Program-made: the position numbers and the translations under genes
Source of the DNA: Pecten maximus
Lineage: Eukaryota
DNA length: 64,000 nt
Reading direction: 5' to 3'
Assembly: GCF_902652985.1 (NCBI RefSeq)
Contig: NC_047018.1
Coordinates: 33,294,001-33,358,000, forward strand
Shown here: piece by piece, positions 5,901-63,227 of the stretch
How the letters are laid out: every line of letters starts with the position of its first letter
Position numbering within the stretch: position 1 is the first letter of the stretch
Notes under the pieces: generated by a model
Told to the model about the DNA's origin: nothing
Seen by the model: the letters and a program-made list of their open reading frames with translations, nothing else
Databases searched by the model: none

Positions 5901-6248
5901 TGTGGATTGTTATAACGTCTCTGATTTGTGTGGATTGTTATCTATTCTCTGATTTGTGTGGGTTGTTGTCACGTCTCTGATGTTTGTGGATTGTTGTCAC
6001 ATCTCTGATTTGTGTTGATTGTTGTCACGTCTCTGATTTGTGTGGATTGTTGTCACGTTTCTGATTTGTGTGGATTGTTGTCACGTTTCTGATTTGTGTG
6101 GATTGTTGTCACGTCTCTGATTTGTGTGGATTGTTGTCACGTCTCTGATTGTGTGGATTGTTGTCACATCTCTGATTTGTGTTGATTGTTGTCACGTCTC
6201 TGATTTGTGTGGATTGTTGTCACGTTTCTGATTTGTGTGGATTGTTAT
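2965..6248. repeat. 28-bp minisatellite, about 115-120 copies
   Basis: Unit TGTCACGTCTCTGATTTGTGTGGATTGT with period 28 (GTCACG at 3014 and 3042). The left edge is degenerate back to about 2895. Confidence 0.98.
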
Positions 6249-24300: not shown

Positions 24301-24764
24301 ACACCTAATGTTATTATGTATTATATCTGAATACGTTGTTTATAACACCTGATTTAATTATGTATTATATCTGAATACGTTGTTTATAACAACTGATTTA
24401 ATTATGTATTATATCTGAATACGTTGTTTATAACACATGATTTAATTATTTATTACATCTGAATACGTTGTTTATGACACATGATTTAATCATTTATTAC
24501 ATCTGAATACGTTGTTTATAACAACTGATTTAATTATGTATTATATCTGAATACGTTGTTTATAACACCTGATTTAATTATGTATTACATCTGAATACGT
24601 TGTTTATAACAACTGATTTAATTATGTATTATATCTGAATACGTTGTTTATAACAACTGACTTCTTTGTTCCAGATTGTTGGAATGATAATATCATTCTA
24701 TCTCTGCTGTAAAGTAAAAAACGAGGACGACGATTTCGACGATGGAGATGAAGTGGAGGTATAA
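9201..24764 (+). CDS. Tetraspanin family gene (6-Cys EC2), spliced, 307 aa from ATG 9201
   Basis: Exons 9201-9305, 15204-15404, 16215-16289, 17782-17901, 19437-19536, 21704-21852, 23762-23845 and 24675-24764. All introns are GT-AG with matching phases (0,0,0,0,1,0,0). The protein has 4 TM helices, TM1 Asn (CYNVFLL), AFCGCCG after TM2, EC2 motifs WDAMQ, LQCCG, PESCC, DCQ and GCY, and stop TAA at 24762-24764. Confidence 0.95.
14778..14909. repeat. 66-bp tandem duplication
   Basis: AGAATTAAAACTGGGACAAAT...AAGGGAAGTAACTGTCAAGAGACA at 14786 and 14852. Confidence 0.9.
15204..15404 (+). CDS. Tetraspanin exon (TM1 end, EC1, TM2)
   Basis: VLGSGVLAVGVWLL...AILAFCGCCGTMRQDKFVLGF, bounded by tag| and |GTAAGC. 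Confidence 0.95.
16215..16289 (+). CDS. Tetraspanin exon (TM3)
   Basis: YGTVLTLVILMLFAGFALGITFRSE, bounded by ttcag| and |GTAATT. Confidence 0.92.
17782..17901 (+). CDS. Tetraspanin exon (EC2 helices A/B)
   Basis: LKEDLTEHFKSSIIKHYG...VTDAWDAMQRT, bounded by ttcag| and |GTAAGA. Confidence 0.93.
19437..19536 (+). CDS. Tetraspanin exon (CCG motif)
   Basis: LQCCGAVGNEDSLFSWAIFKLHSDWYAVEMRDK, bounded by tttag| and |GTAAGT, phase 1. Confidence 0.95.
21704..21852 (+). CDS. Tetraspanin exon (PxSCC motif)
   Basis: (Q)NRPYVPESCCVIGMSKLDCQG...DALLKK, bounded by cacag| and |GTGACT. Confidence 0.92.
23762..23845 (+). CDS. Tetraspanin exon (GC motif, TM4 start)
   Basis: GCYDRALDYIENNSMYITIVAGAVPLLL, bounded by ttcag| and |GTAAGT. 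Confidence 0.94.
23945..24661. repeat. 44-bp minisatellite (about 16 copies) filling most of the last tetraspanin intron
   Basis: Unit TTAATTATGTATTACATCTGAATGCGTTGTTTATAACACCTGAT with period 44. Confidence 0.95.
24675..24764 (+). CDS. Tetraspanin last coding exon (TM4 end, acidic tail)
   Basis: IVGMIISFYLCCKVKNEDDDFDDGDEVEV*, with acceptor tccag|. Confidence 0.93.
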   Translation: MVGMIISFYLCCKVKNEDDDFDDGDEVEV

Positions 24765-41100: not shown

Positions 41101-44100
41101 TACTTCTGTTTTAAATATCTAATAATGAAAACTCCTGAAACTTTTACCTTTAGCTCAGTCTTCACTTACTTTAAACTCTGCCTCGCAATTTTGACCTTGA
41201 CGACATTAGTTTACACTTACTTTGAAACACCCTGTCGTAAAACTTAGACCGTGAACTTTGTCTAAACTTACTTTTAAAACACTCTCCCTAAAACTTTGAC
41301 CTTGAACATGGTTTACTTGGAAACAGTTTGTCCTAAAGCTTTGACCTTGATATATATGTCTACACTTCATTTAAAACATTTCAATCCTAAATCTATGACC
41401 TTGACTTTTATCTACACCTAACATGAAATACTGTTTATTTTCCTTAATCTGTGATCTTGACCTTTATTTACACTTACCTTGTAATATTCCATCTCGGCCA
41501 CTACAGCTTCCTGTACATCATTCAGATAGAGGTTTTTCATACTGCTGTATCTGATAACAAAATCATGGTCACCTAATTCTTAAGTAAATCAAGCCATATT
41601 TTAAATATGAATAACATAAAATATGAATTAATAAATACCAAATGTCATCTTTTCATTTTTGAACACAACAAGTGTAGAGGATTAAGATATTATACAGCAG
41701 CAGGTGTAACAAACAAAGCTGGAGGTCGTGGAGGTCATGGAGGAGGTCGTGGAGGTCATGGAGGAGGTCATGGAGGTTGTAAGCCACACAACCACATCGC
41801 CTTTTTATCATTGTTGGGGGAGGGGATTGGACACAGACAAAATTGAATCCTTGAATCTAGTTCAAGGTGTTAAAACACACAACGTCTAGTTTTTTTGGTC
41901 CCAACAGGTTATTTCATCACATTCAAATTTACCTCTGTCATTTGACCTATTAAAAACAGAGCCTGTATCTATAAATGTTATCAATTAGAACATTTAGAAC
42001 AGTGGGGTTTAAACTTACGGATGCTGACGTATCCACCACAGATTTTCCATTGTGATGTCATCATTCTTCTGATCTTGTATTTTAGGGTCAGGATGTGGCG
42101 TGTACATCGTGTGAAACTCCATCTTGAGATGTTCATGGCACATGGTTACTCCAGCCTCACTCGGCTCTATCAGACCCAGCACTGAAACAGAGTCGTGTAT
42201 TTTTAAAACTGCGTTAGAAAAAGATTTTAGACATACATTAAACTAATGAAACTGTGTTTTGCTAAATATTAAACATTATTATTTAAATTTTCTACACACA
42301 AGGAAATAAAATTTAAAAGTAATGTTTTACAAATTTAAAATTTTAATTCACTTTAATTAATGAAAAGTTCCAGGAAAAATTATGAAGATTTACATTTCTA
42401 AAGATAAATTGTGAAAATATTTTTCCACTTTTAATATACAATAATAACAATAATTTTGGCAGAATGTTGTGTCGTCCAGCATAAAATCGTACCAAAGTGA
42501 TCTCTGTCTACCTTTTAATGACTGAATGGTGCTCTCTTTTCTAACGTATCTCAAATGGTGGATTCTAGCTTAATGAGGAGTTCTGGCTTTCCAGTTTGAT
42601 TTAGGCATAGCTTAACGTCATTTAAATTAACTTGAAGTCCAGCCATCCCGCAGAAGAACCATCCACATGTCAATAACATTTTTTTTTTTCAATTAATCTA
42701 TGATTACAGAACACGTGTCTTCAGATTTAGTCCTCTTCATATCATACAACAGTGCAGTAGGCTATCTTTACATCTCCTTATGTGTAACGTATCTACCACT
42801 GCAACAGTGCACAACCCACATAGATTAGAACAGGTCTGGTTTGAACTGGAATAACATGTCATTGATAGTCATATAATATTACTGTAATCAGTTCCTTGAC
42901 ACAGTTTATGAGATGTGCCACAAAAATTTGTGATAAAAATAACTCTGTAAAGTGGGTAATATCACTCCATCATTGCATGAAAATTGACAGCAAGATCAAT
43001 TTTGGAAGAGAAATTAACTACAACAATAACAGGACATAGTGGGTATATAGAATTTATCTATTATTCCATATACATTGTACATGTATCTAACAAAGGGCAT
43101 TAACTCTGTATATAAAGGTAACAAAATTTCGACCCGATTTCAGCATTTGACACTCCACCATAATGCATTGTATGAGATATGATCTCAGATAATAAAGGGG
43201 GGAATGGAGGTGCCAAGTCAGTTTCTCAAGCACTATTGTGAGATAAAAACTGGGGCCAAGTCAGTTTCTCAAGCACTATTGTGAGATAAAAACTGGGGCC
43301 AAGTCAGTTTCTCAAGCACATGTGAGATAACAACTATGTATTGCATTCAAAGGTTTAAATCCAAATTTATATGTAGAAAATATCATAAAAAGGTAGAGTT
43401 TTGATTAGTATGAATTCAAAATTTATGTGACCATGGATCACTGTTAATGATGTTTCCAGTCAGAATGATTGATACAAATATAAAATATCTTCAATGATGT
43501 AATTGAAAGGAATAGAAGGATTCACCAGCTATGTGGAAACAAACAATACATTTGTTTTCTCAACTTAAAAAAAGGATATTCCCATGAAAGGGAGTTGTAT
43601 GGGTTTTTTTTTTCTTCTGACAGTACATATATCTATGTATGACTTTTTAAATTGAAATTTATGTGAACAATATATACATGTATCCAGTTTTCAGGGAAAC
43701 AACTCCAAATGTGATGAGTTAAAAAGAAACATTACATTGTATTGTTTTCACTGTCGTAATCATGATAAAGGAGAGAGTGACAATTGTTTTCCTCCAAATT
43801 CACTATCACTGTACTGATAATAATTACCTACTGATTTTCAACATATTCAAGGTAAAAGAAAGCTTCATTACACAATATATAGTTATAGCAATTAAAATGG
43901 TAATGTTAACCAGGTATGTGAGGAAATATCACAAATCCTTATATGCTTTGAAGCAGAAAATCTATTTATAACTATTATATAAAGAAATACACTGATAAGC
44001 CGGGTGTTGTCCACCATTAGAGACCACAAACTGACCCGATTAAGACACAGGATGACTTCTCCTGAGTCCTCTACATACCAAATTTACTTTGGAATCTATT

Positions 44101-45822
44101 ATCTTTCCCATATAACCTACAATGTATCTATAGCACAACCCTAACCTTGCTTATCAGATATGGCTTGAAAAATTTGTACAAATGTATGTGCTACCCAGTA
44201 ATGGTGAAGCAAGTCCAGTGTCCAGGATTTTAGAAGGTTATGTTGTTATGTAGATTAAAATACTTATTTTTAATATTATTTCTAGATGTTTAAAAGAGTA
44301 TACATGTATGTGAGCAATTTTAATTTTAAACCATTTTTTTTTATGAACTAACAAATAAATGTTTTGTCAACTTAATAGAAGGCATGATATTAATCAAACT
44401 TGTTAGCCTGGATGGAAGTGTGCAAGGGGTCTTACTGTAGAAGGAGACTGAAGTATCCAGAGAAAATTAACCCATGTCTTCAGGCAGGTGACCCCTATAC
44501 CTTTCCACATTTGATTGGGGTTACCATAGTGCCACCAAACCACCACTCTATTGTATGTACCTACTGGCCACATAACAGGCCTTTGAAGCCTTTGCTTGGG
44601 TCTTCAAGAAAATGCTTGAAATTTTAAACACATATTACTATGACCTTAAAAATATGCCAGGGTCACTTGCATATATATAGAAACATTTTGTACCTGCTGG
44701 CAAAACATCAGGCACAATGACTGGGTCTTCTCAAACTTGATAATTTTTTTTCTCACTTTATTGACTAGTTGACAAGTACCCTTGAAGAAAGGTCAAGGAC
44801 ATTTACATGAGGCCACTGGCAATTTAAAGCGTAGGGCTTTTGGGAACTTGAGAAGATTTGAGAGGTTTTAATTTAGTATGCATTGTATTAAATCCCTGTG
44901 GCAGTGAAAACAATTTTATGTAATTTATATCAGGGAACTTGATTTTTCCACTCTTTCTATGGTAGCTAGATGCTGGCAAAATATAAGGCATCTTGGTCAC
45001 AAATAGCTTGAGATAATTCTAGAGGATTTTTTCCTATTCAACTCCGGTGACCTGTAAAACAGGTAAATGTCAATTACATGAAGAAACATTATAGCACAGT
45101 CCAAGAGAATATGGCCTCTGAAACTTAAATTTAATGATAAAATTCTTTAAGTTTTTAACATATTTGATTCCCATGATCTTGAAAATTAAATAGGTCAAGG
45201 TCACTGCATGGTATGCTGATGGCATGCTTTTATCTGACCTGATGGCAAAATATCAGACGTCTCCGAGTCTCCTGAAACTTGAGAAAATAATTTCAAATGG
45301 ATTGTTTTAACTGTTTGACCACTGTGACCCTAGTATGTCAAAGTCTTCCATATTAGGAATCTTCAATGTATAGATTCTACTCTACCCCGGGTACATTGTT
45401 TTTATCTCCTGACCAAATATCAGTTACCAGTTGTTTAGTTTTTCTAGAAGTCACCAATCCAAATTAACAGAAAGAGAATGATCACAAGCATTGGCACTTT
45501 GAACAGTGGAAATTAAAAACGAAAGTAAAGCAGTGTAGCACTGTTCATGCATGTCGTGTTTACCTGGCTTAAGAATATTGTTTTTTTATTCCAGTATCAA
45601 ACATAATGATTGATGTGTATAAAGGATTTGATGGAGTTATTTTCCATACTAAAATAGTGTACTTGTTGTCGAGATACATACACAACGCATCAATTAATTC
45701 ATGCACGTGTATACCTACCTGTACATGTGCGTAAAAATCTAAATGGCACAGTACCAACACATGCAGTACTCTGTTTTGAGTCTGCACCTTCCATTTCACT
45801 TACCTGTCTGTATCTTCGCCAT
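37980..45822 (-). CDS. PTER: Phosphotriesterase-related protein (amidohydrolase superfamily), complete, 348 aa
   Basis: Exons in + coordinates: 45804-45822, 42019-42181, 41478-41550, 40813-40924, 40050-40202, 39391-39555, 38396-38613 and 37980-38123; total 1047 nt, all GT-AG and in phase. Motifs: [83 protein letters not shown]. Confidence 0.97.
38396..38613 (-). CDS. PTER: PTER exon 7
   Basis: [25 protein letters not shown]...[10 protein letters not shown]. Confidence 0.95.
39259..39372 (-). mobile_element. 5'-truncated copy of the same SINE in PTER intron 6
   Basis: GTCATTTAAGGACGTGCCAGGTTTTTGAGGTGGAGGAAAG matches 31958-31997. Confidence 0.85.
39391..39555 (-). CDS. PTER: PTER exon 6
   Basis: [33 protein letters not shown]...MSHLD. 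Confidence 0.95.
40050..40202 (-). CDS. PTER: PTER exon 5
   Basis: [11 protein letters not shown]...[15 protein letters not shown]. Confidence 0.95.
40813..40924 (-). CDS. PTER: PTER exon 4
   Basis: [38 protein letters not shown]. Confidence 0.95.
40948..41026. repeat. 39-bp tandem duplication next to the PTER exon 4 acceptor
   Basis: ATCAGATCAC(CG/AA)GTAATAATAATATTTTTACTCAAATAA, two copies. Confidence 0.85.
41155..41480. repeat. Degenerate 50-57-bp tandem repeat built on the PTER exon 3 donor
   Basis: TTGACCTTGA...TACACTTAC units, with ACTTAC (GTAAGT on the - strand) at 41164, 41215, 41266 and the true donor at 41472. Confidence 0.7.
41478..41550 (-). CDS. PTER: PTER exon 3
   Basis: [24 protein letters not shown], bounded by atcag| and |GTAAGT. 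Confidence 0.93.
41721..41778. repeat. GGAGGTCRT / GGA short tandem repeat
   Basis: (GGAGGTCGTGGAGGTCATGGA) x2 plus a partial copy. Confidence 0.9.
42019..42181 (-). CDS. PTER: PTER exon 2 (HEH metal ligands)
   Basis: [23 protein letters not shown]...[10 protein letters not shown]. Confidence 0.95.
43212..43332. repeat. About 43-bp tandem repeat, about 2.7 copies
   Basis: GCCAAGTCAGTTTCTCAAGCACTATTGTGAGATAAAAACTGGG. Confidence 0.9.
44570..45520 (-). mobile_element. Decayed HINE-like element with internal subrepeats
   Basis: Recurrent TGACCTTGAAAA..GGTCAAGGTCA and GGCAAAATAT..AAACTTGAGA subunits, the same style as the other HINE-like copies. Confidence 0.45.
45804..45822 (-). CDS. PTER: PTER coding exon 1 (MAKIQT)
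   Basis: ATG GCG AAG ATA CAG ACA G|GTAAGT, phase 1, joins VLGLIEPS. Confidence 0.88.
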
Positions 45823-46351
45823 ACTGTCTCTAAGGTATATCACAGAAGGTATTTCACAGAATGTGTGTAGTCGTATTCCCAACTACAACAGTAGGCCTAC
45901 AGTACCAGCCTATCTGTGACCCGTTCCAGACAGTTTTTTTATTTTTAGATAACCGGCTTCGTGGGAAATTTCTACCGGATTGAATTCTCCTAGCATAAAT
46001 TGTTTATAAACATTTAACGTTAGGCCTATATCCAATTCTCTAGTGTTGGCTACTTGTTTTTAAGGTTTTTGTCATGTGATCATATGAAATTGATATGGGA
46101 TTCTTATTTTTAAATAATCAGAATATACAGCGTATTTCTGTTAATCCGGACGATGGATTTTCTGTTATTCAAACAAAAATTAGAAAGCCGTTGTAAACTT
46201 CCTGTTTTGAATTGAGTGACACGCATGAAAATGGCCTGAAGGCCTAGCTTATACACTACAGGAGAGAAAACGAACAGTGATGATTCTGTGATACTTGCAT
46301 AAAAGGTATGGGTGTCCCGGCGACATGAGATAATGTATGATAAATGACAAG
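45823..46351. promoter_or_regulatory. Bidirectional promoter region for PTER and SLC2A10/12-like, including a probable non-coding first exon of the transporter
   Basis: The genes are head-to-head and the region is locally richer in CpG than the flanking introns. ETS-type ACTTCCTG at about 46197-46204. Candidate + strand donors AAG|GTATGG (46305) and AAG|GTAAAT (46351) could splice to the acceptor tttcag|47154. Confidence 0.55.
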
Positions 46352-46550
46352 GTAAATAATTCCTCAACGGTGACGTATTGAAAAAAAATCATGAGCTTTC
46401 TTGATCAACTCAAATTACATCCATAACCGCAGTATGTTACAGATGAGAGCTGTCACCACAACATGTAAATTAATATAGATGTACCATTACGGGACATGGT
46501 GGCAAAAAGATGCAGCTCTTGATGTTGCAATATAAATGGAATATCAAATT

Positions 46551-46623
46551 GGACCGGGAATCGAACCCGTGACCTCCAGCTTGGTAGGCGAGCGTTCTAA
46601 CCAAATGTCCGGACGTTCGGCCC
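46551..46623 (-). pseudogene. tRNA-like fragment (pseudo-tRNA or SINE head)
   Basis: On the - strand: TGGTTAGAACGCTCGCCTACCAAGCTGGAGGTCACGGGTTCGATTCCCGGTCC. The T-arm/B box is good, the anticodon stem is mismatched and the 5' end is disrupted. Confidence 0.65.
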
Positions 46624-47153: not shown

Positions 47154-47275
47154 TCCTCATTTATTTGTACATGTAATAAAATTGGTAAAACTCCAAACTT
47201 TCAGGTCCACTTAAGGATCTAAAGAAATCCAAGAGGGGATACTCATCATGGAAAATGAGGATCTACAGGAGGGAG
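47154..47275 (+). CDS. GLUT candidate start exon A (ATG 47248, MENEDLQEG)
   Basis: Acceptor tttcag|47154, in-frame upstream stop, Kozak-like atcATGg, donor GAG|GTAAAT; phase 1 matches the acceptor at 55399. Confidence 0.7.
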
Positions 47276-50200
47276 GTAAATATTTGACTTTCATCATCCA
47301 CCCCATCAACAAAAATTTACTATGATAAATCTGACCATTTAATGAATGTGTTATATTTAAAGTCTTTTGATAAATACACACTATGATCAAAGTACTGTAT
47401 TTATACTGCAATAAGGCAAGACAGCATACAATATCTGAGGAAGATGGACTTATTTCTGGGCAATGGAGTTTTGCACTTGTTGGCATTACTTATAAACTAA
47501 AATAGATAGGGGTTGGCTTTAATTACATAGGGTATATAGCTATAGGCTTATTGCCATATGAAAACAGCATTCATAGTTTGCACACTCTCTAGTAGAATCT
47601 TGGAATATTGGACCAGATAGCTATATATATAGATGTTGTGTCAATGTGTTCAATATCAGTAAATTATTCTGTAGGTTTTTATTAGTGAGTCTTTAATAAT
47701 AAAAACAACATTCTTTAGTCGTTTGGTGGTGGAATAGAATGACAGTCCCAATATTTGATTCCCTATGGGTGATGGAAGGGTATATGATATCACAGGTTTA
47801 TGGTATGGTTATCCCGTAATCCGTGAATGCTAATGTGTTGGCAAGAATTGCTATATACATACTGCTCTCTTCAGTAAAGGGTTCCAGTACTTAGGGGCAT
47901 TGTCTGTTGGGTTTGCTGTCCCCATGAAGGCACAGTGGTTTTCCCTTGTGATTTTCCTCCACTTTAGACAGCAGTGGGTGTCAGTGCATTCTCGGGTGAT
48001 GCAGGCAGAACTGGTGTATGATAACTTAAATTGTGTTTCCTTTCATGGGTATGCTTCGATGCTATCTATACACAAGACCCAGTAATCTCCTTGACGGGAA
48101 TGTATGTAAAATATTGTTGTACCATATGCATATATTTTATATCAGTGAGTGCTCTGACAACTCAGCAGAGAAATTTCAGTATCATACATACTGGTATATG
48201 TATGGTAAAATTTGATTCAGAAAAAAAAAGAAAAGAAAGAAAGCATCATCTCCCTAAGTACATGAATTTAATTGACAAATGATGCAATGTATTTAAACCT
48301 TCTTTATTTCTTAAAAATCCAATATACAATTTTATAAAGTCAGCACATCTGTAATGTATAGAAATGGAAATAAACTGTATAGCTTGTTTTATAATCTGAG
48401 CCAGCTTAAAGCTGCATACGCCCAAATAACCTAAAATTGTAGTTGCGTACATGTATTAATGGCAATCCAAGACGCTTATTCACACTCTCCTACATTAAAA
48501 TGACCATTGGACTGGGTGCTTGACAGGGAAAATCCTTGCGACATCAGTGTATAAAAATAACTCGCCGCATTTATCTTTATCACAAGTTCTAGTTTTGTCA
48601 CAGAGTTCGGGAACAAGGCTTCAACAACGCACACTGCACATAAACTACACACATGAATGTTGTTTACATATCGAGTATACATTAACTTGCCTTATAATGC
48701 TTTCATTTGAACATATCAAAATACACTCGTAATAACTGATCAGTATAAACAAACCTACATTTTTATAGCAATATGGATACAACAAAACATAGACAAAATT
48801 CAGGTCGGTAAAGCTGACAATGTAATTAGAGGAATATGGAACAAGCTAACCTGAGCAATCCAATACACTGCCAGAAAAATCGAAATTTGAGTCTATTCCT
48901 TTTTCTTCTTGTGATAAGTTCACAGGAATCAATTCTTTTCCTAAAGAAATCCTGGAGTTTTGCTGATTCCAGTCCCTTTTACATTTCTTATAGGCAGAAT
49001 CTGTCTGTTTTTGGGTGCCCATGCTTTCGGCGGTCCACCATTTTGTGTTGACTGATAATATAACTCGCCTGTTGCATTGTGGGACTAATTTGCACAGAAA
49101 CTTGGTCCGTCGGACCCATTTGGGAATTTCCCTTATACTTTTAAAATACATATTTTTCTCCAATTTTGGATTCAGGATTATTTTTTAGGTGTATATTTAG
49201 TTTGAAGACTTTAAAGAGATTAAAATGTAAACATTTATATATATATTTCTTTGGGAGTATGTGGCTTTAACACAGATCATATATGGGCATGTATATGTAT
49301 GGTCATACACCTGACACAGATCTGTGAAGGTTATTTGATAAAACTGCATTTTAGCTACCACTTAAGATGGCGTAATCATGGAGGCATTTGTAGTCTGTAT
49401 TAATTATATATATAAGTACACATGCATTGACATAGAAAAGCACAAAAAAGAGTCACTAGGTCATAATGATGTGAGTTGGTAAATTATTACCCTATTGATT
49501 TAGTTCCAGGCTTGGGAGATATGACGTAGTAGATTACATTATCTTGCTTGATCTGAATTATGTCTAAGCTCAAATGTATGTCATATAAATAAATTTCCTA
49601 TATCATTAGATACAAGGTGTATCAATGAAAAAAAAAACAGCATCAATACGAACGTCTGCACGACAGCGTTCTTTTCCTCCGGCTATTTTCTTACATCAAA
49701 AGAAAGCGTGCTGACAAAAAGTTCAACTACATCCATTTTTTTGAGACTACATATGTTACTATGTCTTATGTAAGCCCAGACTGGTACAAATTCTCCTTTG
49801 ACATATAGTTGAAGGGTGCCATCTTAGAGAGTTCAATAACTTCAAACCCCATGTAGTCTAGATCTATGGACATATATTTTCATGACATATACAAATAGAA
49901 AAATAAATAGTGATTGAGGCTACTTCCGGCAAAGGAAATGTAGTGATTTTTTACATACTCATGCTGGGTTAAAAGGTTTTATTGTGATCTTTGGCCGAAT
50001 CAGCTGACAATATGCATGTTGCAATTCTTATAATTTCGCTTCCTTGATTTGAAGAAATGTGAAATGCATGGAGAATTTTATTATCTAAATGTTATTACTG
50101 GTTTAAATTATTTAATCCTGCTACATCAATTCCATTTTTAGAAATCTTTAGAACTGTTTTATGCATACAAATAGTGTTTTATTAGCTCACCTGGTCCAAA

Positions 50201-53200
50201 AGACCAAGGTGAGCTGATGTGCCTGACAGTGGCATCCGGCATCCGTCCGTCCCTCCTTCCATCTCTCTTTTCATCAACATGTACAATTACCTTGTTAACA
50301 TGATAACTTGATGTAATATCAACCAAGTTTGATAAATTTGGACGTAGCCATGTATTGTCAAGATCTCGGACAAGTTTGAAAATGGGAAACATTCAACAGT
50401 AACTTAATTACAGTATTATTACCCTTTGTAATAATATTATTATAAGACCTTGTTTATACGATAACTGCAGTAAATATCGACCAAGTTTGATGGAACTTTG
50501 TATGCTGCCTTTATCAACAAGATATATCAGACATTTTCAAAAATAATAATTTTTTGATAGTACTTTACAGAGTTATTGCCCTTTGTAATAATAATATTAT
50601 TATTAACATTTTTTGGTTCACCTGGGCCGATAGGTAAATCTTTTTAAAACGCTACCAGTCCTGAACAACTAAATGGATTTTGATGAAATTTGGTCAGGAG
50701 ATTAGTGTTGTAATATAAATTAAGGATGTGACAACCTTGGGGCAGGAGAAAGGAGTCCAATAGGGGAAATATCGCAAAAAAATAAGAAATGTTTTCTCTT
50801 TCAAGAATGACAGGATATTTATTTAGTCCACCTGTAGTTTGAACCATAGTTGGTAGAGGCAGTTCAAAAGAAAGAAAATATTTTAAATACACATGTATAA
50901 CTTAACTTAATTAGAGTATTTTGCCATAAATAGTGAAATATCCCGGTGAGCGATGCAGGCCCTGTTGGCTTCTTGTTCAGGATATTGTGTTTGAAGTAGA
51001 TCATTTAATTGCATCCAACATCAATATCACTGTTATATCAATGATGTCAAAAAGCTTTATTTATATAATATGTAAATGTATAAAGATATAATATATTCGC
51101 TGTATTAAGCACCCAGGGGGTTAAAAAAATGGTTACAGAGGGGGTAATTTACAGGTAACTAAATTTGTGTTATGAGCTTGATGCATGAATATTGTGAACA
51201 AATATTTCAGACTTAGCAGAAGTCTAGATTTGATCACCAATTACTAAACTCTCTACATAAAAAATGCAAGTAATATGACTTATTTTGAAGTTATTTCACG
51301 ATTAGGAGAGGCGTGATATAATTTGAATTTCTCCGCTGGAAAGGGGAGGGGCACTTATCGGGGGAAGGGCGCTAATCGCAGCGAATACAGTAACTGTAAA
51401 AATGATATGTGTAAATGGCTCAGTGTACATGTACTGTATGGTATATATTGATATGTATGAAATCATGTCTTGATTATGTACGTGTATATGTAAGTAAATA
51501 TGGGTAACAGGTGTGATCAAATGATTTCTATTGATCGTACCATGACATAGGCGTGTTTTATCATTTCCCTTATGAGTTGAAATATTCATTATTAATTTGG
51601 TGAGCAGCATATACAGTGTTTATGATTTAGTAGCTGTATATTAAACATATATGTTTGGAAGATTGAATTACTGTATTCTATATGTACCTAATATGGGCAC
51701 ATTCCCCTAAAATCCAACCACACTTTCTTTTGCTAAGAAAGGCAATTAAGTAATAACCTTTTATTAGCTATTTATACACATTTACAACTATACAAGGTAT
51801 TCAGTATTTAATTATCATATTCTACCCCATGTGCACCATCCCCTATAAGTCAAATCCGACCTTTAATTTCTGAGAGAGGCAATTTAGCACTTACAGTACC
51901 TTAACTTTCAGGCAGTTTGTACAAAACTTTTTGTCCGTCTCAAGAAAATCAAATAGATACTGTTGAATCTTTTCCAGTTATAAAAAAACTATGCTCTCCA
52001 GAAAAGTTCCAACAATCTGAGTCGACATCAGTAAAAATCTTAATTAAGTGTAGAAGCAAAAATGCCTATTCCAGGTCATTGTAAATAAAATATGGTACAA
52101 CAAACAGCCTGGTACAGAACATGTTTACAAATGGTTGATACTTCATTAATAATGCTGGTTGATCTTTAGTGTAGTTACCGTATTCAATCTAATAAACACA
52201 CCTACCCCTATGACCACATTTCCTACTTTTTTCAGGAAAAGAGGATGGGTGTGCTAATTAAAACATATTAAATGTTCCTTACCTCACTGATCTGCCAATA
52301 TCATCTTCAGTAACTAAATACCCTAGATTGTTTTTGCTACATATATAGAAATATGTAAATTACAAAAAAGTTTTTTCCCCCCAAAGTTTCACAGAAATTT
52401 TCCCTGTACATCGTTTTATTAAGCACACGTGTGAATTTATTAGGCCAAATACAATATGTTGATTCCTGTTGACTGCATAAACAGTTCACACGTGTGTCTT
52501 GTGTATCTGTGAAAAATACATGTACATGTACAACATGAGTGTTACCTGGTCATTTTCAGCACTATACCTATGCAATCAGTTACCTGTTCAGTCTGAACGG
52601 TATGGGATTGTATATGTATATTATATGTGAAAGCTGTTGCTTGTGTTTCACACTGGCTGGTAATTTGTGAGTTTAAACTACATTATTATACCTGGAGCTA
52701 TAGGCTGTGTTTAGTGTCTAAAATAAAGATGGTTTGAGATGTGTGTTCAATTAACTGAAAAAATTCAATAACAATATGACCAGTGTAAGATTTAATCTGA
52801 TTAGGATGAGTGGTTTTACTTGAGTGATTTCGGATGTTGTGAACCACGTCAATTATCAACTGGAAGTAAGAGCTAGTATACAGTAAAATCGGACCAGGGA
52901 AAACCTGTGAATTGTATTACAGCTCGACTCTACTTATTAGTGACAGAGGAACACATTTTACGAAGTTTGGATATCACTATGGGGAGTTTACTGAGCAAAA
53001 CATTCGGAGTATACAGTGATAATTATAACACTCCACTAATTAACACTGGTGACTCCAAAAAGGCAACTGGCCCTCTGGTTGATAAAGGTAGAGACAACTT
53101 TATATAAGTTCTATTATTGAAATATAAAATTTGTTATGTTGTTGAAATGATCTAGCTGGTATATATTGTATTGAAAAGAAAGTTAAATTAGTATGTTTGA

Positions 53201-56200
53201 TTTGAATATTAAATAAGGAGATAAATTTATGCTTGCTGAACCTTTGGAGATTCTCAATTAACACATCTAGTTTAACTTACCAGCAATATTTTGTTATTAT
53301 TCATATAATTCTAAAAAATCTGATTTGTTGAGAAGATGAAGTAAATCAAAGTTTTCAAAAGAGGTATATAACTGTCGAACTTCATTATCTCAAAGTCACT
53401 GGTCCTGGGTATGTTTTATATGAGTTTTACTGTCAGGACTGAACTTTTACTTTGAGTTGAGCAGAGCCTTTGAGTTATTGGGAGTTTGGGATAACAAAGT
53501 TGGACCCCCCCAAAAATTAAGCATGCATAATCTCCTCCATGGAAGTTTTTTTCAGACTTGTAAGCGAGATATATTTGAAAAAAATATCAAACACCTTTGA
53601 AATACAGGCATCAAAATAGGAATAGGGGGACTTACTGTACATGTTATTCCACCGGTATTGGTACAGGTCAGCATCCATAAACAGTTAAGTTAAAGTTTAT
53701 ATAAAACAGTGTTGTTTCAATACTAATGAGGATACAGCTTAGTTGTTTGACATCTGTTACCTTTGTGGACCTGCTGACCTTGACCGTAACCTTTGTCCTA
53801 CTTTAAAAAAAACTTATTCATATTTGAAACCAACTCAGCCATCTATTTTGTCTGATAACTATTGTTTTGGTTGTATTATAATAAGGTAACACAGTGTTAA
53901 TGATTGTCATATCATTAATTATATGTCAATACATATTTAAGTTAATAACAGGTTTTAATGATCACAGTGATAAAAGTGAAAAGTGATAAAAGTGAAACCT
54001 AAAAATTTCCCAAGCAATATAGTTTGATATACTAACACATATGGCTTGGAACATTTTTTGTATACTGTATTAGTAGTTTCACCAGCTGTTACAATTGTAC
54101 TTTTTGTAAGTATAAATCAATAAATGACACAACAGTGTGATAATCTGAAAGATTTTTTGTCCAGATAGATATAGATACACATGTATCATGTACAGTGAAA
54201 CCAGACTTTACTGACAACTGACTTTAATGACATCCTGTAACATCCACATTCGACCAGACCTCAAATGTCATTGCCGACACTGATTTAACTCTTTACCACT
54301 TAGCACTCCCTATACTTTACCACCTAATGATGACATCCGACGCCCCTACCTGTATCCCTAATGACGACATATGACGACATTTCAAATTTGCCACCTTTTT
54401 GTAGGGCTCGCTGACCTACCTGTAAATATGAGTTGAAGTGAAACTTTATTTTTGGATTTGCAAACTGTAATTCAATTCTGGAGACTCTCATGATTAATTT
54501 GGTGTATGGGAATCATATCTTCAACAATAAATTCTTTTCTTCTCAGTGTTTTAAATCATTGATTAATTTAAATTTTTCAGTTAGCTATTAATCATTCTAG
54601 GGCTTCACCAAGTATAGCTTTTGGGGAAATAGCAGGGGCGTCATATGTCGTCATTTAAAGGTGGTAAAGAGTTAAACATCCTTAACATCCAACCAAATCT
54701 ACCAGAACGGCAACATGCTCCACTATCATTACAGACACTGATTTTAATGACACCCTGTCACATCTGAACATATCTGACCATATCTACCTGAACGGTGACG
54801 TAACATCCAACCAAATCTACCAGAAAGGCAACATATGCTTCACTGACATTACCGAATCTAACTCTATACCAACACCCTGTAACATCCAACCAAGACTAAT
54901 AGAACGGCGACATTACCGACTCTAACTTTACCAACACCCTGTAACATCTGACCAAGTCTACCAGAACAGTGACATTACCGAATCTAACTTTACCAACACC
55001 CTGTAACATCTGACCATACCTACCAGAACGGCGACATTAGCGACACTAACTTTACCAACACTCTGTAACATTTGACCAAGTCTGGTAACTTTAACAACAC
55101 CCTGTAACATCTGACCAAGTCTACCAGAACAGTGACATTACCGACTCTAACTTTACCAACACCCTGTAACATCTGACCAAGTCTACCAGAACGGCGACAT
55201 TACCGACTCTAACTTTACCAACACCCTGTAACATCTGACCAAGTCTACCAGAACCTCTATTATTAAAGAACGTTGGTATGCTTACCTAAGGTTTATAATA
55301 TGTCATATTGTTTAGGAAATTTATCTATTTTTGTCATCATAAAAATGACAGTTGAAAAAAAGTATAAATTCATTTGTATTTTTGTTATTTTATGACAGAG
55401 ATTCTACTGAAGAATTACAGTTCCCACAATGGGTCCATGGACTCCAATTTGGATGAGGATCCCATACAGTCCATACAGATGGAGCTGGAGGATCATCACC
55501 TTGACAACAGTCCTGTTGTTAGTCCCACCCACCAGGAATACCCCTCTGAAGATTTCTCTCCCAACTGCTACCTCAGTCTGGCGGCTGTCATGGCCTCCCT
55601 TGGGGGTATCCTCTTTGGATATGACATAGGTAATTTCATATTGAAATTGTTTTTATGCCCCCACCATTTTGGGGAGCATTTATACATGTATGTTTGACAA
55701 TTGTGGTACCTTGCCCCATTCCATTCTGAATCAATATTGTACTTTGAGAACCCCTCGACAGATCCAGTTAGCTTACACCACAGTATTATAACCACTAATT
55801 CCTTTGCGTACGTAGGGGCATTCATGTCTTACAACAGACATTTTCTAGTTCCTTTAACATTTCAAAAGGGTCTACAACTATTCTAATTTTTCCCTGTGTA
55901 CTGAATGAATTGGTATACCTGCTGGTAGTCATACTTTGATGTCGTTGTATGAATGTCTTTGTTTGGTTGTTCCCAGGTATCATATCCGGTGCTGTCCTTC
56001 AGCTGCAGGACCAGTTCTGTCTCTCCTGTTTCCAGAGGGAGCTGGTTGTGAGCATCATGCTTGTAGGGGCCATGATGGGATCCCTATTTGGAGGTACGAT
56101 GCCGATCATTACTTTTAAAACTCTCAGAGAAGTCAAATGTTTGAACATCATCAAAGCCTCCACAGGAAAGAGTTATACAGTTATTGGCTAATTGCGAGGT

Positions 56201-59200
56201 GGATATAAAATTATTAACCAGAATTGGTAGTAAGTCACTATAAGCGAATAAAGTTTAAAACTCAAAACTATCAGTATCCTCTTGATTTGGAGGTATTTTG
56301 TTTCGCCATACTGAAGGTGCAAATAAGTTGATTTCAGCTACAAATAAAACAAATTTAAACTTAGAGTGATACCAAAGTTTGTGATAAACATGCTTGCTTA
56401 TTATTTAAGCATTGATGTCATTTTTTTTTTAGTTTCATTGGGGAATGAAAAAGAATTGTTTGAAAACTGTATGAATCCGTGTTGCGGATTCTTACAAAAG
56501 TTTGCAAACATTTTTTTTTTCATACCGTCCCATGAATAATTGACATCAATGCTTATAATTAATTTTTGAAATTGATTTTCAAAATTAAAACATGTTTTAT
56601 GTACAATTGAACTGTTCTTATAAGGGATTCTTTTTCACAAGTCAGTACGCAATGTCAATGGCCGTATTGTGACGTCACATATTTCGCGCCATGTTCGGAT
56701 TTTTTCATAGAGGTATGAAAACAAAATCTCAACCAGTCAGAAAGGTGCATTCTGTGTACAAACACTGGACAATTAATTATATAACTATGAACTTTACTAT
56801 GAATGGAAGACTGATTGACAAAAATGTATCAGAAAGGTTGATTAAACAACTGTTACATGTATTAAAAAATATATTATTTAAAAACAAAATACTGTAAAGT
56901 GACCAATTTGATTTGTCTTACATCAATTACTATGTCAGAGAAAACAAGATTTAGGACATTTTGTTGATACAATTGGAATTGAAAACTGATGAATGTGAAT
57001 ATGAGTTCCAACGGAGACCAAGATATATTTACATTGTTGGTTCTTGCAGGTTTTGTGATAGACAAGTATGGACGTAGGATGACAATCATTCTCAATGCTG
57101 GAGTATTCCTCGTAGGAGCTTTTATTCTAGCCCTGTCCACAAGTTATCCCCTCTTGGTAAGTACTGGAATGATCCTGTTAGGGGGTTTAATTCTGGTCTC
57201 CAAGTTATCTCCCCTAGTAAATAATGGAATGATCTTATTAAAGGTTTAATTTTGGTCACCAGTTATCTCCCCTAGTTAGTACTGGAATGATCCTGTTAGG
57301 GGGTTTAATTCTGGTCTCCTGTTATCTCCCCTAGTAAATAATGGAATGATCTTATTAAAGGTTTAATTTTGGTCACCAGTTATCTCCCCTAGTTAGTACT
57401 GGTATGATCCTGTTAGGGGGTTTAATTCTGGTCTCCTGTTATCTCCCCTAGTAAATAATGGAATGATCTTATTAAAGGTTTAATTTTGGTCTCCAGTTAT
57501 CTCCCCTAGTTAGTACTGGTATGATCCTGTTACTGACTTTAATTCTGGTCACAAATTATCTCCACTGGTAAGTATTTGATTAATCCTATTAAGCGCTTGA
57601 ATTTTGGTCACCAGCTATCCTCAGGAAAATCAGAATTTCTGGGCAAATGATTATATCCATACATTAATATCAGTGTTTTGTTCCCCAGTCTATATCTATT
57701 GTATATATGAATTAGTCGATGGTAATGAAACCACACCAAGTCCATTACAATTTAATTAAAAGACAAAAACATTCTTTGTCATTATCCAATGATAAGCCTA
57801 CCTTCCAGTGACCACTTGACCATTTGACCTTATATTTTGGGGGTATAATTACAATAATTTTGTTTCATTGTTTTTGCAGTTGTTTGGTCGCCTGGTCATT
57901 GGCATAGCTGTTGCTGTGTCTGCTACAGGAGAATGTGTTTATATATCGGAGATAGCACCTGCTGTAAGTCTGTTTACATAATTTCAGTTTAATTGTATTT
58001 TGCTGAATAGATCAGGAAAATACACATGAATTTAGTGGGAAACTGTTTCCCTGACTATGGATAAATATTGATCCAAACATGGATGAGTTTTTTATGTAAA
58101 ACTATAAACAGACATTCAAGGGACACGGGAGGGATATGGCAATGTACTGAAAATATACCCTTGGTATCGCTCATAATGAAAGTTTATAAAATCGTTAATA
58201 AGATAAATTGCTGCTTTGGTAAGTTTTTAACCTACATTTGTACGCCTAAAATAGTAATATCTACACACAAAATGATAACTCAGTGTATTTACTTCACAGA
58301 CCACAGCACGAGTCTGTACTTTTGTATTCCTGTTTTCAGAAGAAGCGAGGAGTGCTGGTATCTCTGAATGAGCTTGGCATTACTCTTGGACTTCTCTTGG
58401 CTTACCTCATTAACTACTTCTTTATTCAGGTTGACAATGGCTGGTATGTAGTGTACAATACATTGTATGATGTCTGAAGTTTTATTGTTCAACAAAATTT
58501 TAAGTAAAAACAACATATATTTTGCAGAAATAAATATTGTGAAATGAATATCCCCGGTTTTAATTATTTTCTGAATCAAGTTTCAAGTTATCAAATTCAT
58601 AATTGTATTCTATTCAAAAACAGTGAAAAAACAAAACCCTTTAAAAATACATCGTTACTACCTTACTAAAGTACAGAAGAAAAAAAGATTATTTGTGAAT
58701 CTCCATTACTTATAGACACTTGAACTTGTGTCATGTTTTCGGACAGGCGTTACATGTTTGGGCTGTCTGCAATTCCTGCAGTTGTACAAGGTATAGGGAT
58801 GATGTTTCTTCCTAAGAGTCCACGCTTTTTGATGTTGACAAGACAGGAGGCAAAGGTCGGTTCAAGGTCACATTTAACCAAATCAAAACCAGAGAGTATA
58901 ACTTGTCCCTAATGCACGCTTTTATCCTTTGGTGAAAGACAAGTCCCCTGCGAAACGATTATGAATAATTCATGAACATTCATGAATAGTTCATGAATTA
59001 TTCATGAACGAAATTCATGAATATTCTTGATTTATTCATGAATATTTTCATGAAATTCATGAACTTAAAACTTCATGAACATTTTTTTCAAATTATGTTC
59101 ATGAATATTCATGAATTATGTAAGAAAGTTTTTCATTCATGAAATCATCATAGTTCATGAATGTTCATGAACTTTTTCATTCATGACAATTCATGAACTT

Positions 59201-62200
59201 AAAACTATGATGAATACTCATGAACTTTTTCATTCATGACAATTCATGATTAGTTCATGAATTCTCATGAACTTAAAACTATGATGAATTACTGTGTTAC
59301 CACTGTGGAAGCTGACTTCCCAATGTCACATTTCATAGATTTCTCTCCATCAATCATGGGGTATATGTACCCGGTATATGATAATTGAAAGAATAAAAAT
59401 GAACACATTTGATGAATCCAGTTGATTTATTATGTTTTTTTTTGTTATAATCATATCCTGACTCTAGATTTTAAGATGTCAAACATTGATGGCCTGTATA
59501 TATTTCTCTGTGTATCCGGACCTCAATAAATGTAGAAGTTGTTTGGATGTTGTTTTTATTTAGGCCAAGGAAGTGTTGATGAAACTGAGAGGCAGAGATG
59601 TTGAAAAGGAGATGAATGCCATGAAGATATCCATTGCTGGAGAAATGGTATGTATTGATCATTGAAGCATTAACTTCTGAAATGGAGACTATTCCCGGGT
59701 TGATTATAAAATATTTAATTAACATAACCAGTTAATTTTGTGAATCTTTATTTCTTTATATTAATTGATACAAAAGGAGGATATTATTCATGCTTATTAA
59801 AATTTTGAAATCAAATTTTTGCATTCTCTGATTATAAATGAAATACTGTTTAGCTTGTTATTTTCTTGAGTGATATTTTTGTATACTGATGCTGTGTTTC
59901 AAACAATTGTATCTCTTCTTAGCCAAATATCATAAGGTGGTGTGATTTTCAAATCACTCTTTGTCGGTGGTTTACCCATCTCATAAACAATTTGTGTCGC
60001 CCCTGTTTTGAATTTTGAATTTAATCAGATATTGATATGACTCCCAGTTTGCTATGAAGTTTCTTGCTGATATTCCTCTTGAAAATTTAGGGACATGTTG
60101 TGCATGCTACTTTTTGAAGTTGCAAGAATATTCAAAATGGCTGCCATCCCTATTGTGTATTCTCTTCTATACCTCTAAAGAAAACATAAGATGGCAATGA
60201 ACTGTTCTGTTTACCTCCCCAGAACCAGACCTGCTGTAATCTGTGTAGCAGTGTAGACAACATGAGAGGGCGGATGTTGATTGGGGCAGGACTTGTCTTC
60301 TTTCAACAGTTTACAGGCCAGCCTAATGTGCTGTATTACGCACCCACCATTTTTGAGGCTGTAGGCTTTGGGTCACATTCTGCGGCTACTCTAGCAACAG
60401 TAGGACTAGGGGTTATCAAGGTAAGCGTTGACATATGGAATTTATAAAAAAAACAATAAGGCTATCAAACTTGTCAAATTTAGTAAATCCTTGTCATCTT
60501 TTGACCAAAATAAAAAATCATGAACTAAATTTATCCTTGTAGTTCTTGAGGAAGTAATGCTATATGATTTCAAGTATATCAAAACGAATAAATGAAAGTA
60601 CCGGGGCTTTTGATTATGTTTCATTTAATATGAAATTGATGTTAACAGGTTATCATGACTGTGATTGCCTTACTGTGTGTGGATAAATGGGGAAGAAGGA
60701 AGTTTCTCCTGACCGGTGCTATATTGATGGGTGTGGCCATCCTGTGTCTGGGGCTCGTGACCCACCTTCAGAATCACAAACTTGACAAAGAGACATGCTC
60801 CGAGAGTGAGGCATGTGTGCCTGGCCATCATCAACACCAAAAGTTTCTATACAACCAATCACACAGTCTCACTGGAGATAACCTGACTAACTCAATCATA
60901 ACCACACTGTCTAACTCCACTGATGATGCACCTCTGGTACACGGGGACACAGCTGGGAAAGTGGTGGCATTTATAGCCTTAATGACATTTGTGGCAGCTT
61001 ATGCCATAGGATTTGGACCAGGTATATAATCTGGTTTTAAATAGATAATGGTGTCACAAAGAAATGAACTTTTCAGTTTGGCCCAAGGTCATAGGGGTCA
61101 CTTTGTTATGTTATTAAATTAAAAAAAACTGATCTGACTAACAAGAATTCCTAGAATCATGATATTATTTGGTCCTCAAGATTAAGTTTGCAAAAAAAAC
61201 AAAAAAAAACCTTAACCCATATTCAAGTCACAGGGGTCAACTTTTAAAGATTTGTGGAATCATTCAAATGACTTCTACTGATTTGGCCTGTGTCATTCCT
61301 CACAGAACTAGTTTGTTTTGAAAATAAACAAAAAGTTTCAGGCTTTCTTTTCCTTCAACCAAGAATCAAACATATTTAACCTTAATTTTCACGAATATAA
61401 AATATGTTTGCCAATTATATTGAATACCGGTGAGCAGTGCAGGTCCATTGGGCCTCTTGTTTTTGCTTCACTGACTTGAATGAGATTTTGTCCATATCTC
61501 GCTTATGCATGCACATATTTTAAGCTTGATTTCCATCAAAGTATTGGTGTGGGGCAGGTATATAATTATGTGTTTTACCAATATATTCTCTTAAGGTCTG
61601 AATGTCACATTCTTAGAACATCACAAATATCACTGTTCCATTTATCGATTGAAACAAGTTTTGACTTAATTAATACGGATGCAATATATTGTATAGGTGT
61701 ACATATAATATATAACTTTTGTGATGATCTTAATTCAACTTAATCTTCATGATTGTAATGCTTTTACTTGGTAACATACCTGGTGGATAATATATTAAAA
61801 TACATTTATGTGATATTTTAGATAAGATCAAAAATTATAGTTTTGAAAACATTATTTTCATTTTCATCCTATAGACTCATCATATCATATGAGTGTTGAC
61901 CTCAAATGTTTTAATATTTGAATAGATGAACTTACTTTCACTTTGACCTTATATGTGACAACCTCTGAGCTGCAGATTCTTTTTTTTTTAAAACAGTTAC
62001 CTGGCTGATCCTCAGTGAGATTTTCCCATCCTCATTGAAGGGACGGGCCATTGGTATGGCAACAGTTCTCAACTGGGGCACCAATATGGTTGTCTCCTCT
62101 GCGTTTCTCAGTGTTATTGGTATGTACCACATTGACATTGAAATAATCATACAACAAAAAAAAATCAATTAAAAACGTTACTTTTGTTAAATTCATGCAA

Positions 62201-62811
62201 TTATATTGGAAAACACCAGTTTAAGAAATTTATGCTTATGAAATGTAGTATAGTTGAGTTTAACATTTGGTGAAGGCAGAAACTGGAAAACTCACAGCTG
62301 GATGGACAGATATAGTAATACATTTTTACACAGGATCAGATCATTTAACCTTGGCCTTCTTGGTGAAAGGTTTGTCTTTTGTAAACAGTGCCTCCTTAAC
62401 ATCTACATCTTATAACTAGTTATAATTGACTGATTTTAGTACCTGTATATGAAAGCAGAATCTTTGAAGTTTACACTAGGAAAATGTCATTTTCAGTTAA
62501 CAGAGCTCTTAAGTCACATGTGTGGTACGTTTTAAAACCTACTTCATTATAACCATAATATAGATTAGATGTATTTTGAAAATTTCAAGCCATAATTCCT
62601 AAATCTGTTGTTAAAATGTATACATGAAATGTAGTCATTAATATATGCATGTACATTATTTTGTCTTTGACCTTCAGATGAGGTTGGAGTGTCCTTGACC
62701 TTTTTCATATTCAGTCTGATCTGTGGGTTATCCACAGGATTTGTATTTCTGTTTGTCCCGGAGACAAAAGGACGTTCCTTGGAACAGATATCTTCAGATC
62801 TTACAAAAGAG
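47248..62811 (+). CDS. SLC2A10: Class III facilitative sugar transporter, GLUT10/GLUT12-like (C-terminus unresolved)
   Basis: Core exons 55399-55629, 55977-56093, 57050-57156, 57880-57963, 58340-58443, 58747-58855, 59564-59647, 60223-60420, 60649-61021, 61997-62119 and 62678-62811, all in phase. Motifs: [76 protein letters not shown], a large glycosylated loop 9 (NQS, NLT, NST), [15 protein letters not shown] and PETKG. Probably a pro-orthologue of both SLC2A10 and SLC2A12. Confidence 0.93.
50177..50977 (+). mobile_element. HINE/DINE-1-like (Helentron-associated) element
   Basis: TTTT flank, 5' AGCTCACC..GGTGAGCT hairpin/subTIR, CCGTCCGTCC microsatellite, internal repeats, 3' GGTGAGC subTIR, AGGCC..GGCTT stem and a CTTGTT end. 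Confidence 0.8.
51094..51392. mobile_element. Tc1/mariner-type MITE remnant
   Basis: Imperfect TIRs TATTCGCTGTATTAAGCACCC (51094) and GGGCGCTAATCGCAGCGAATACAG-TA (51367-51392). Confidence 0.6.
52979..53087 (+). CDS. GLUT candidate alternative start or cassette exon B (MGSLLSK...VDK)
   Basis: actATGg context, 36 codons, donor AAG|GTAGAG; phase 1 matches the acceptor at 55399. Confidence 0.55.
53374..53505. mobile_element. Short MITE remnant
   Basis: Imperfect TIRs GTCGAACTTCATTATCTCAAA and TTTGGGATAACAAAGTTGGAC. Confidence 0.5.
54200..55255. repeat. 62-bp minisatellite interrupted by the piggyBac-like MITE
   Basis: Unit CACCCTGTAACATCTGACCAAGTCTACCAGAACGGCGACATTACCGACTCTAACTTTACCAA with period 62 (54935 and 54997). 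Confidence 0.92.
54289..54671. mobile_element. piggyBac-like MITE (383 bp)
   Basis: TTAA|CTCTTTACCAC ... GTGGTAAAGAG|TTAA, with subterminal inverted ATGACGACATATGACG (54361) and CGTCATATGTCGTCAT (about 54639-54654). Confidence 0.85.
55399..55629 (+). CDS. GLUT exon (N-tail, TM1)
   Basis: [10 protein letters not shown]...[17 protein letters not shown]. Confidence 0.92.
55650..55850 (+). mobile_element. Mini HINE-like element (about 200 bp)
   Basis: TTTTTATGCCCCC start, 3' GGGGCAT subTIR (55815-55821), ATGTCT-TACAAC-AGACAT hairpin and a CTAGTT end. Confidence 0.6.
55977..56093 (+). CDS. GLUT exon (TM2)
   Basis: [39 protein letters not shown]. Confidence 0.95.
56406..56555. repeat. 150-bp foldback inverted repeat
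   Basis: Outer arms TAAGCATTGATGTCA and TGACATCAATGCTTA, with inner nested arms ATGAAAAA/TTTTTCAT, TGTTTG/CAAACA and GAATCCG/CGGATTC. Confidence 0.85.
57050..57156 (+). CDS. GLUT exon (TM3)
   Basis: [35 protein letters not shown]. Confidence 0.95.
57157..57620. repeat. About 59-bp minisatellite with an A/B dimer higher-order structure, derived from a GLUT exon end and its donor
   Basis: Alternating units ...GTACTGGAATGATCCTGTTAGGGGGTTTAATTCTGGTCTCC.GTTATCTCCCCTA and ...GTAAATAATGGAATGATCTTATTAAAGGTTTAATTTTGGTCACCAGTTATCTCCCCTA. Confidence 0.92.
57880..57963 (+). CDS. GLUT exon (TM4)
   Basis: [28 protein letters not shown]. Confidence 0.95.
58340..58443 (+). CDS. GLUT exon (TM5)
   Basis: [35 protein letters not shown]. 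Confidence 0.95.
58747..58855 (+). CDS. GLUT exon (TM6)
   Basis: [36 protein letters not shown]. Confidence 0.95.
58955..59292. repeat. TTCATGAA palindrome-rich array
   Basis: About 20 or more TCATGA palindromes in about 340 bp, with recurring CATGAACTTAAAACT subunits. Confidence 0.85.
59564..59647 (+). CDS. GLUT exon (central cytoplasmic loop)
   Basis: [28 protein letters not shown]. Confidence 0.92.
60223..60420 (+). CDS. GLUT exon (TM7-8)
   Basis: [44 protein letters not shown]...GVIK. Confidence 0.95.
60649..61021 (+). CDS. GLUT exon (TM8-10, loop 9)
   Basis: [21 protein letters not shown]...AAYAIGFGP. Confidence 0.95.
61060..61464 (+). mobile_element. 3' part of a HINE-like element
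   Basis: Ends CCGGTGAGCAGTGCAGGTCCATTGGGCCTCTTGTTTTT, homologous to 50943-50977. Confidence 0.6.
61997..62119 (+). CDS. GLUT exon (TM11)
   Basis: [41 protein letters not shown]. Confidence 0.95.
62678..62811 (+). CDS. GLUT exon (TM12, PETKG)
   Basis: [45 protein letters not shown], donor GTAGGT. Confidence 0.95.
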
Positions 62812-63197: not shown

Positions 63198-63227
63198 TTG
63201 TGTAGTTGGGAAATGTCCTTGTTCCTG
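63198..63227 (+). CDS. Possible 30-nt GLUT C-tail micro-exon
   Basis: Bounded by ccacag| and CTG|GTAAGA. It is open in phase 0 (LCSWEMSLFL) and phase 2 (CVVGKCPCSW), so the frame is unresolved. Confidence 0.45.

Follow-up and report, generated by a model that had tools for sequence, protein, structure and literature searches.

Which first exon does a scallop sugar transporter use, and does that choice decide how the protein is sorted? The question is posed by a 64,000-nucleotide stretch of the Pecten maximus genome (NC_047018.1, positions 33,294,001 to 33,358,000; hereafter the window, whose first letter is position 1 of all coordinates given here), in which a gene for an SLC2A10/12-like sugar transporter lies on the forward strand. 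A first-pass annotation had proposed two separate first exons, here termed A and B, each of which would complete a dileucine sorting signal upon splicing to a shared acceptor, with the choice of exon switching the transporter between an unlipidated and a myristoylated form. The analysis described here supports, with good confidence, a plainer reading in which exon A and the shared exon complete an ExxxLL motif, while B is probably unused intron and the myristoylated form probably does not exist. The splicing of exon A and the conservation of the motif are observed, and the non-use of B is a likely conclusion drawn from several kinds of evidence. In short, the gene encodes an unremarkable class III GLUT whose dileucine motif is divided by a splice junction.

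Gene identity and structure

In a protein search, the peptide of the shared exon retrieved a P. maximus protein at 100% identity (P0001, named SLC2A10-like protein at its source) along with three other scallop proteins. P0001 maps exactly onto the genome as 14 spliced exons, from 47248 to just past the end of the window. The features of the transporter locus, with candidate exon B, are as follows.

47248..47275, plus strand: exon A, coding part of the first coding exon (9 codons and 1 base); -4 of the dileucine falls on the Glu codon at 47269-47271
52979..53087, plus strand: candidate exon B, likely unused intron; MGxxxSK start, with the Asp codon 53081-53083 at -4
55399..55629, plus strand: shared exon 2; completes the Glu at -2, carries Ile-Leu-Leu (55401-55409), the remaining part of the cytosolic N-terminal tail and the first transmembrane helix
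55977..62811, plus strand: exons 3-12, encoding the sugar porter of 12 transmembrane helices (P0001 mapping, Pfam Sugar_tr)
55977-56093, 57050-57156, 57880-57963, 58340-58443 and 58747-58855, plus strand: exons 3-7 (P0001 mapping)
59564-59647, 60223-60420, 60649-61021, 61997-62119 and 62678-62811, plus strand: exons 8-12 (P0001 mapping)
63198..63227, plus strand: 30-nucleotide cassette exon, part of the P0001 mapping
from 64196, just beyond the window, plus strand: last exon (P0001 mapping)

P0001 matches Pfam Sugar_tr with 381 bits (cut-off 22.3) and resembles solved sugar porters, with GlcP, STP10 and GLUT1 among the matches. Alignment reveals a long, variable loop 9 with three N-glycosylation sequons at residues 423, 432 and 443; a long glycosylated loop 9 is a feature of GLUT10, GLUT12 and HMIT (PMC2890515). 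Together with the source name and the N-terminal motif, these features bear out the GLUT10/12-like class proposed earlier, an assignment that rests on the source names of matches; no vertebrate GLUT10/12 was among the 99 matches. By sequence, the gene is classed as the scallop SLC2A10/12-like transporter of the sugar porter family (major facilitator superfamily), with transport of sugar or dehydroascorbate as its putative activity.

Exon A and the split dileucine motif

The coding part of exon A begins at the ATG at 47248, which has a purine at -3 and an in-frame stop codon upstream, and ends before a GT donor at 47276; the acceptor AG occupies 55397-55398, and the shared exon starts at 55399. 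Ending in phase 1, exon A reads in frame into ILLK and thereby generates EGEILL, residues 8-13 of P0001. The junction itself is seen in an RNA contig from run X5 (293 nucleotides, depth 3.3), which lies on 55397-55563 and whose 5' end is identical to window positions 47244-47273, with B skipped. A 196-nucleotide contig from run X2 reaches the same place at its letter 31, where the joint row is masked by repeats; the depth of 0.37 in the exon A bin equals, by arithmetic, what the first 30 letters of this contig should contribute, and it very likely also joins exon A to 55399. The first 14 residues are identical in all four scallop species, and the codons of exon A score +11.2 bits against intron over eight codons. 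Exon A is a real first coding exon spliced to 55399, and exon 2 is placed by the exact P0001 mapping and by RNA contigs of runs X1, X2 and X5. Further upstream, a donor-like site at 46352-46358 and an acceptor-like site at 47205 suggest a non-coding first exon ahead of exon A. The X5 contig carries 128 letters ahead of its junction.

The motif straddles the intron, with the upstream exon supplying positions -4 and -3 and the shared exon the remainder, and [DE]xxxL[LI] is present in 109 of 153 homologous N-terminal tails, isoforms counted singly. The closest known systems are the class III transporters GLUT12 (SLC2A12) and GLUT8 (SLC2A8), which share the 12-helix porter, the long glycosylated loop 9 and an N-terminal acidic dileucine (PMC7462842, PMC2730553, PMC2890515). 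The GLUT8 motif binds AP1 and AP2 (PMC2730553), the localisation of GLUT12 depends on its own dileucine (PMC7462842), and GLUT12 bears dileucines at both its N- and C-termini (PMC4592010); the literature on adaptor binding and intracellular retention by these motifs also includes PMC6929180. The scallop motif differs in straddling an intron, and relatives differ in completing it with several first exons, while adaptor binding and localisation in molluscs are predictions. From the exon A peptide, the conservation of the motif among homologues and the GLUT8 and GLUT12 papers, it may be inferred that the ExxxLL signal completed by splicing of exon A to 55399 is likely a binding site for clathrin adaptors and likely keeps the transporter on internal membranes. 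The literature searched, mostly without subscription papers, yielded no description of an invertebrate GLUT10/12 whose dileucine is split by a junction or rebuilt by several first exons.

First exons in other lineages

Isoforms were compared in 16 groups, mostly as RefSeq model isoforms whose junctions were placed at the points where the proteins diverge. Seven lineages have alternative N-termini that join immediately before the shared leucines: oysters (the three genera counting as one), Mytilus, Mercenaria, the chiton Liolophura, Lineus, Tubulanus and Ptychodera. Seven other groups, including Mizuhopecten, have a single N-terminus. Octopus, Hydra, Amphibalanus and Ixodes do not enter the count, as their variants join elsewhere or lack the motif. 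An Asp or Glu stands at -4 of the shared leucines in 13 of the 16 N-termini of the seven lineages (one of three in the chiton, one of two in Ptychodera and all of those elsewhere), and none is myristoylatable. When one N-terminus per lineage is set aside, six of the remaining nine are acidic at this position against a background of about 25% (binomial P 0.01). The oyster pair is the best supported, being present in several species and in one Logan record.

Judged from these sequences, an architecture of several first exons, each completing the dileucine, appears to be real in relatives of the scallop. The proposal that separate first exons complete one motif holds for isoforms annotated in oysters, mussels, a clam and two ribbon worms; in the scallop its second exon, B, is unsupported. 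Glu and Asp are exchanged at -4 in oysters, Lineus and Tubulanus. Because a Glu-to-Asp change at -4 of the OCA2 signal eliminated binding of AP-3 and reduced that of AP-1 (PMC3418312), first exons that differ in this way would be expected to tune adaptor choice in these molluscs and ribbon worms. There is a precedent in the long and short forms of GLUT9 (SLC2A9), where alternative N-termini of one GLUT change trafficking; GLUT9, however, belongs to class II, its putative dileucine was immaterial in that study, and no lipid anchor is involved (PMC3883675).

Candidate exon B

Candidate B runs from an ATG at 52979 to a GT at 53088, ends in phase 1 and reads in frame into ILLK to give DKEILL. Its peptide starts with MGSLLSK. 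The form MGxxx[S/T], or MGxxxSK, is the consensus start for N-myristoyltransferase. The AGs that precede B at 52922, 52940 and 52946 all share the phase of exon A. The coordinates and phases of both exons, and the EGEILL and DKEILL junctions, had been read exactly from the letters in the first-pass annotation. Upstream of B, 52426-52700 holds two CACGTG boxes and several TACCTG words, which are donor-like on the minus strand.

The sequence of B nevertheless resembles intron. The first coding intron holds 55 stop-free candidates running from an ATG to a phase-1 GT, at 48 donors, and six to nine distinct donors in the intron, counting that of B, equal or exceed the B score. The B donor scores -0.1 bits versus 3.2-8.0 for 13 real donors under a matrix built from this gene, and biased towards them, and 1.3 versus 1.5-7.1 under a generic matrix. 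Over 35 codons the coding score of B against intron is -1.3 bits, an intron-like make-up, and 366 of 500 simulated introns contain a candidate with as good a codon score; a control on real sequence went unused, being swamped by repeats and real exons. Candidates with a donor as good as B occur in 565-594 of 600 simulated introns. When the donor is combined with an MGxxx[ST] start the count falls to 20-34 of 600, and when combined with an acidic residue at -4 to 78-111 of 600, so the acidic residue alone is ordinary and only the pairing of the two is rare. B also lacks the acidic make-up typical of tails in this family. Two further ideas were rejected: the long open frame around B as coding evidence, there being 15 frames of at least 70 codons in the six frames of the intron, and B as a piece of a repeat or transposon, given its single genome match (which does not prove rarity).

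Of the junctions proposed as a check, 47275>55399 is present in the X5 contig. For B there was no RNA cover in eight runs (X1-X7 and X9) of 23, searched as contigs too sparse, at a gene depth of 2-5, to prove that B is never transcribed. B is absent from five scallop proteins in four clusters, and exon A is the only variant of the first coding exon on record in scallops. The claim of two scallop first exons completing the dileucine stands for A, with its RNA contig and its conservation in all four species, and is unsupported for B, with its poor donor, its codons and its lack of an annotated isoform. Conservation of MGxxxS in relatives had been named beforehand as a test of myristoylation, and it fails: an MGxxx[ST] start is found in none of the 153 homologous N-terminal tails. 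Any MG start occurs in five of them, two from oysters (MGD) and three from octopus (MGLWKC, which fit the looser pattern only). The second N-terminus of oysters begins MGD in Magallana; in Saccostrea and Ostrea, Gly2 is replaced by Cys and the start reads MCE. A myristoylated isoform made by exon choice is unsupported. The B peptide gave no match to longer proteins, no exact look-up hit and no Pfam match. A match to a 1324-residue repetitive protein (E 7e-4) was rejected as chance, having no transporter likeness. A likeness to the long N-terminus of the chiton (p 0.02-0.11) was also rejected. A metagenome scan for scallop loci found none.

Alternative readings of exon B

Several observations weigh against treating B as unused intron. 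An MGxxx[ST] start, an acidic residue at -4 and a donor as good as that of B come together in just 1-2 of 600 simulations, and in 0 of 600 once Lys7 is added, although the pairing of start and acidic residue was chosen after the sequence had been seen, in a scan of very many introns. The RNA test of B is thin, as just two contigs cross the 55399 junction. Further, of the candidates in the intron, B is the one most like the Magallana second first exon, with which it shares TFGxxSDxxN (p 0.002 with 3761 null peptides and 0.01 with shuffles, and equalled in 4 of 150 simulated introns) and the Asp at -4, the likeness being weaker for Saccostrea and absent for Ostrea over 10 comparisons in all. Of the seven bivalve lineages for which isoforms are available, three have a second first exon, and the ATG of B, like that of A, has a purine at -3. 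Weighed by judgement, B as an exon of any kind is unlikely but deserves some weight.

That weight is divided among three accounts. B could be an alternative first exon with its own promoter, N-myristoylated and replacing the ExxxLL tail with a DxxxLL one, and possibly a tissue-restricted descendant of the oyster second exon that gained myristoylation, such that promoter choice would set an unlipidated against a myristoylated tail. The chance rarity of its N-myristoyltransferase-type start with an acidic -4 (0-2 of 600 simulations), the faint oyster likeness and the frequency of second first exons in the family speak for this, but the donor is the weakest, the codons are intron-like, scallops have no annotated isoform of the kind, no homologous tail has the start, the Gly2 of Magallana is Cys in Saccostrea and Ostrea, and the features were picked post hoc. 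A myristoylated start from B is therefore improbable, whether taken alone or within this fuller account. Slightly less credible still is a minor first exon homologous to that of oysters, in which the Glu-to-Asp change and the longer tail matter and the MG is incidental; the peptide and Asp common to the Magallana exon, the parallel exchange in Lineus and Tubulanus and the loss of AP-3 binding in OCA2 (PMC3418312) all fit, but the likeness is marginal after 10 comparisons and missing in Ostrea, the acidic family make-up is wanting, and the exon is unannotated in four scallops. Least probable of all is that B serves as an internal cassette reached from exon A by way of the AG at 52922, 52940 or 52946, with an internal, unmyristoylated MG. 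With any of these three acceptors the reading frame of exon A runs uninterrupted across B into exon 2, and their pyrimidine content (0.53-0.65) falls inside the range of real acceptors (0.41-0.82); the weak donor and intron-like codons again count against it, the junction contig skips B, and no such insertion exists in scallop homologues. Non-use of B thus remains the likely reading.

The C-terminal end

Splicing would also vary the other end of the protein. In the frame used by other scallops, the last exon agrees with Argopecten in 39 of 44 residues and contains YKPV, and tyrosine motifs of this YxxPhi (YxxV) type occur in 73 of 119 invertebrate long tails versus 24% in shuffles. In the orthologue frame, the cassette at 63198-63227 encodes CVVGKCPCS and then a stop, a Cys-rich, CaaX-like end that loses the YxxV tail. 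The Mizuhopecten isoform P0003 ends with the identical peptide and P0005 skips the cassette, while short isoforms of mussels end in four to six Cys in 12 residues. Cys-rich short tails were also noted in clams and Tubulanus. In P0001 the cassette and last exon are read in a different frame from that of the three other scallops, since its exon 12 has one base more than the orthologue frame requires, and the extra base, in an A run at 62800-62811, is likely an assembly error.

The invertebrate long tails resemble GLUT10 (SLC2A10), whose C-terminal YSRI belongs to a YXX-Phi motif class that drives its endocytosis (PMC13196150), but the invertebrate protein combines an N-terminal dileucine with the tyrosine motif, and its short-tail isoforms drop the latter. 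Signals of GLUT12 type at the N-terminus and of GLUT10 type at the C-terminus in one protein likely represent the ancestral state. The C-terminus would be a better candidate than the N-terminus for a splice-controlled lipid switch, if there is any here; palmitoylation of GLUT1 is known (PMC10940682).

Neighbouring features

A phosphotriesterase-family gene lies head-to-head with the transporter (45804-45931 and 38500-42181, minus strand).

45804..45931, minus strand: likely first exon of the phosphotriesterase-family gene; long contigs of runs X1 and X2 end there

Its exon at 42021-42179 matches Pfam PTE at E 0.0004 and 20.4 bits, below the cut-off of 22.4. The two genes likely share a promoter near 45950-46350. 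Other features include a tRNA-like stretch at 46550-46620, by eye probably a remnant of a short interspersed nuclear element; tandem arrays at 2955-6246, 23945-24660, 54845-55254 and 57138-57619 (periods 28, 44, 62 and 59/117); a 42-base array with a long open frame downstream of the transporter gene; and a very high-copy repeat at 56360-56754, with summed depth of up to 70,000 in RNA contigs.

Implications

No myristoylated GLUT was found in the literature searched, and B, if real and myristoylated, would be the first known from that search. Combined with the C-terminal cassette, which exchanges a YxxV tail for a Cys-rich one, it would then amount to a splice-controlled switch of sorting and lipidation at both ends of the protein. 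Apart from B, the split motif as rebuilt by alternative first exons in several lophotrochozoans, often with Glu and Asp exchanged at a position known to shift the preference between AP-1 and AP-3, would offer a natural test of how promoter choice tunes a sorting signal.

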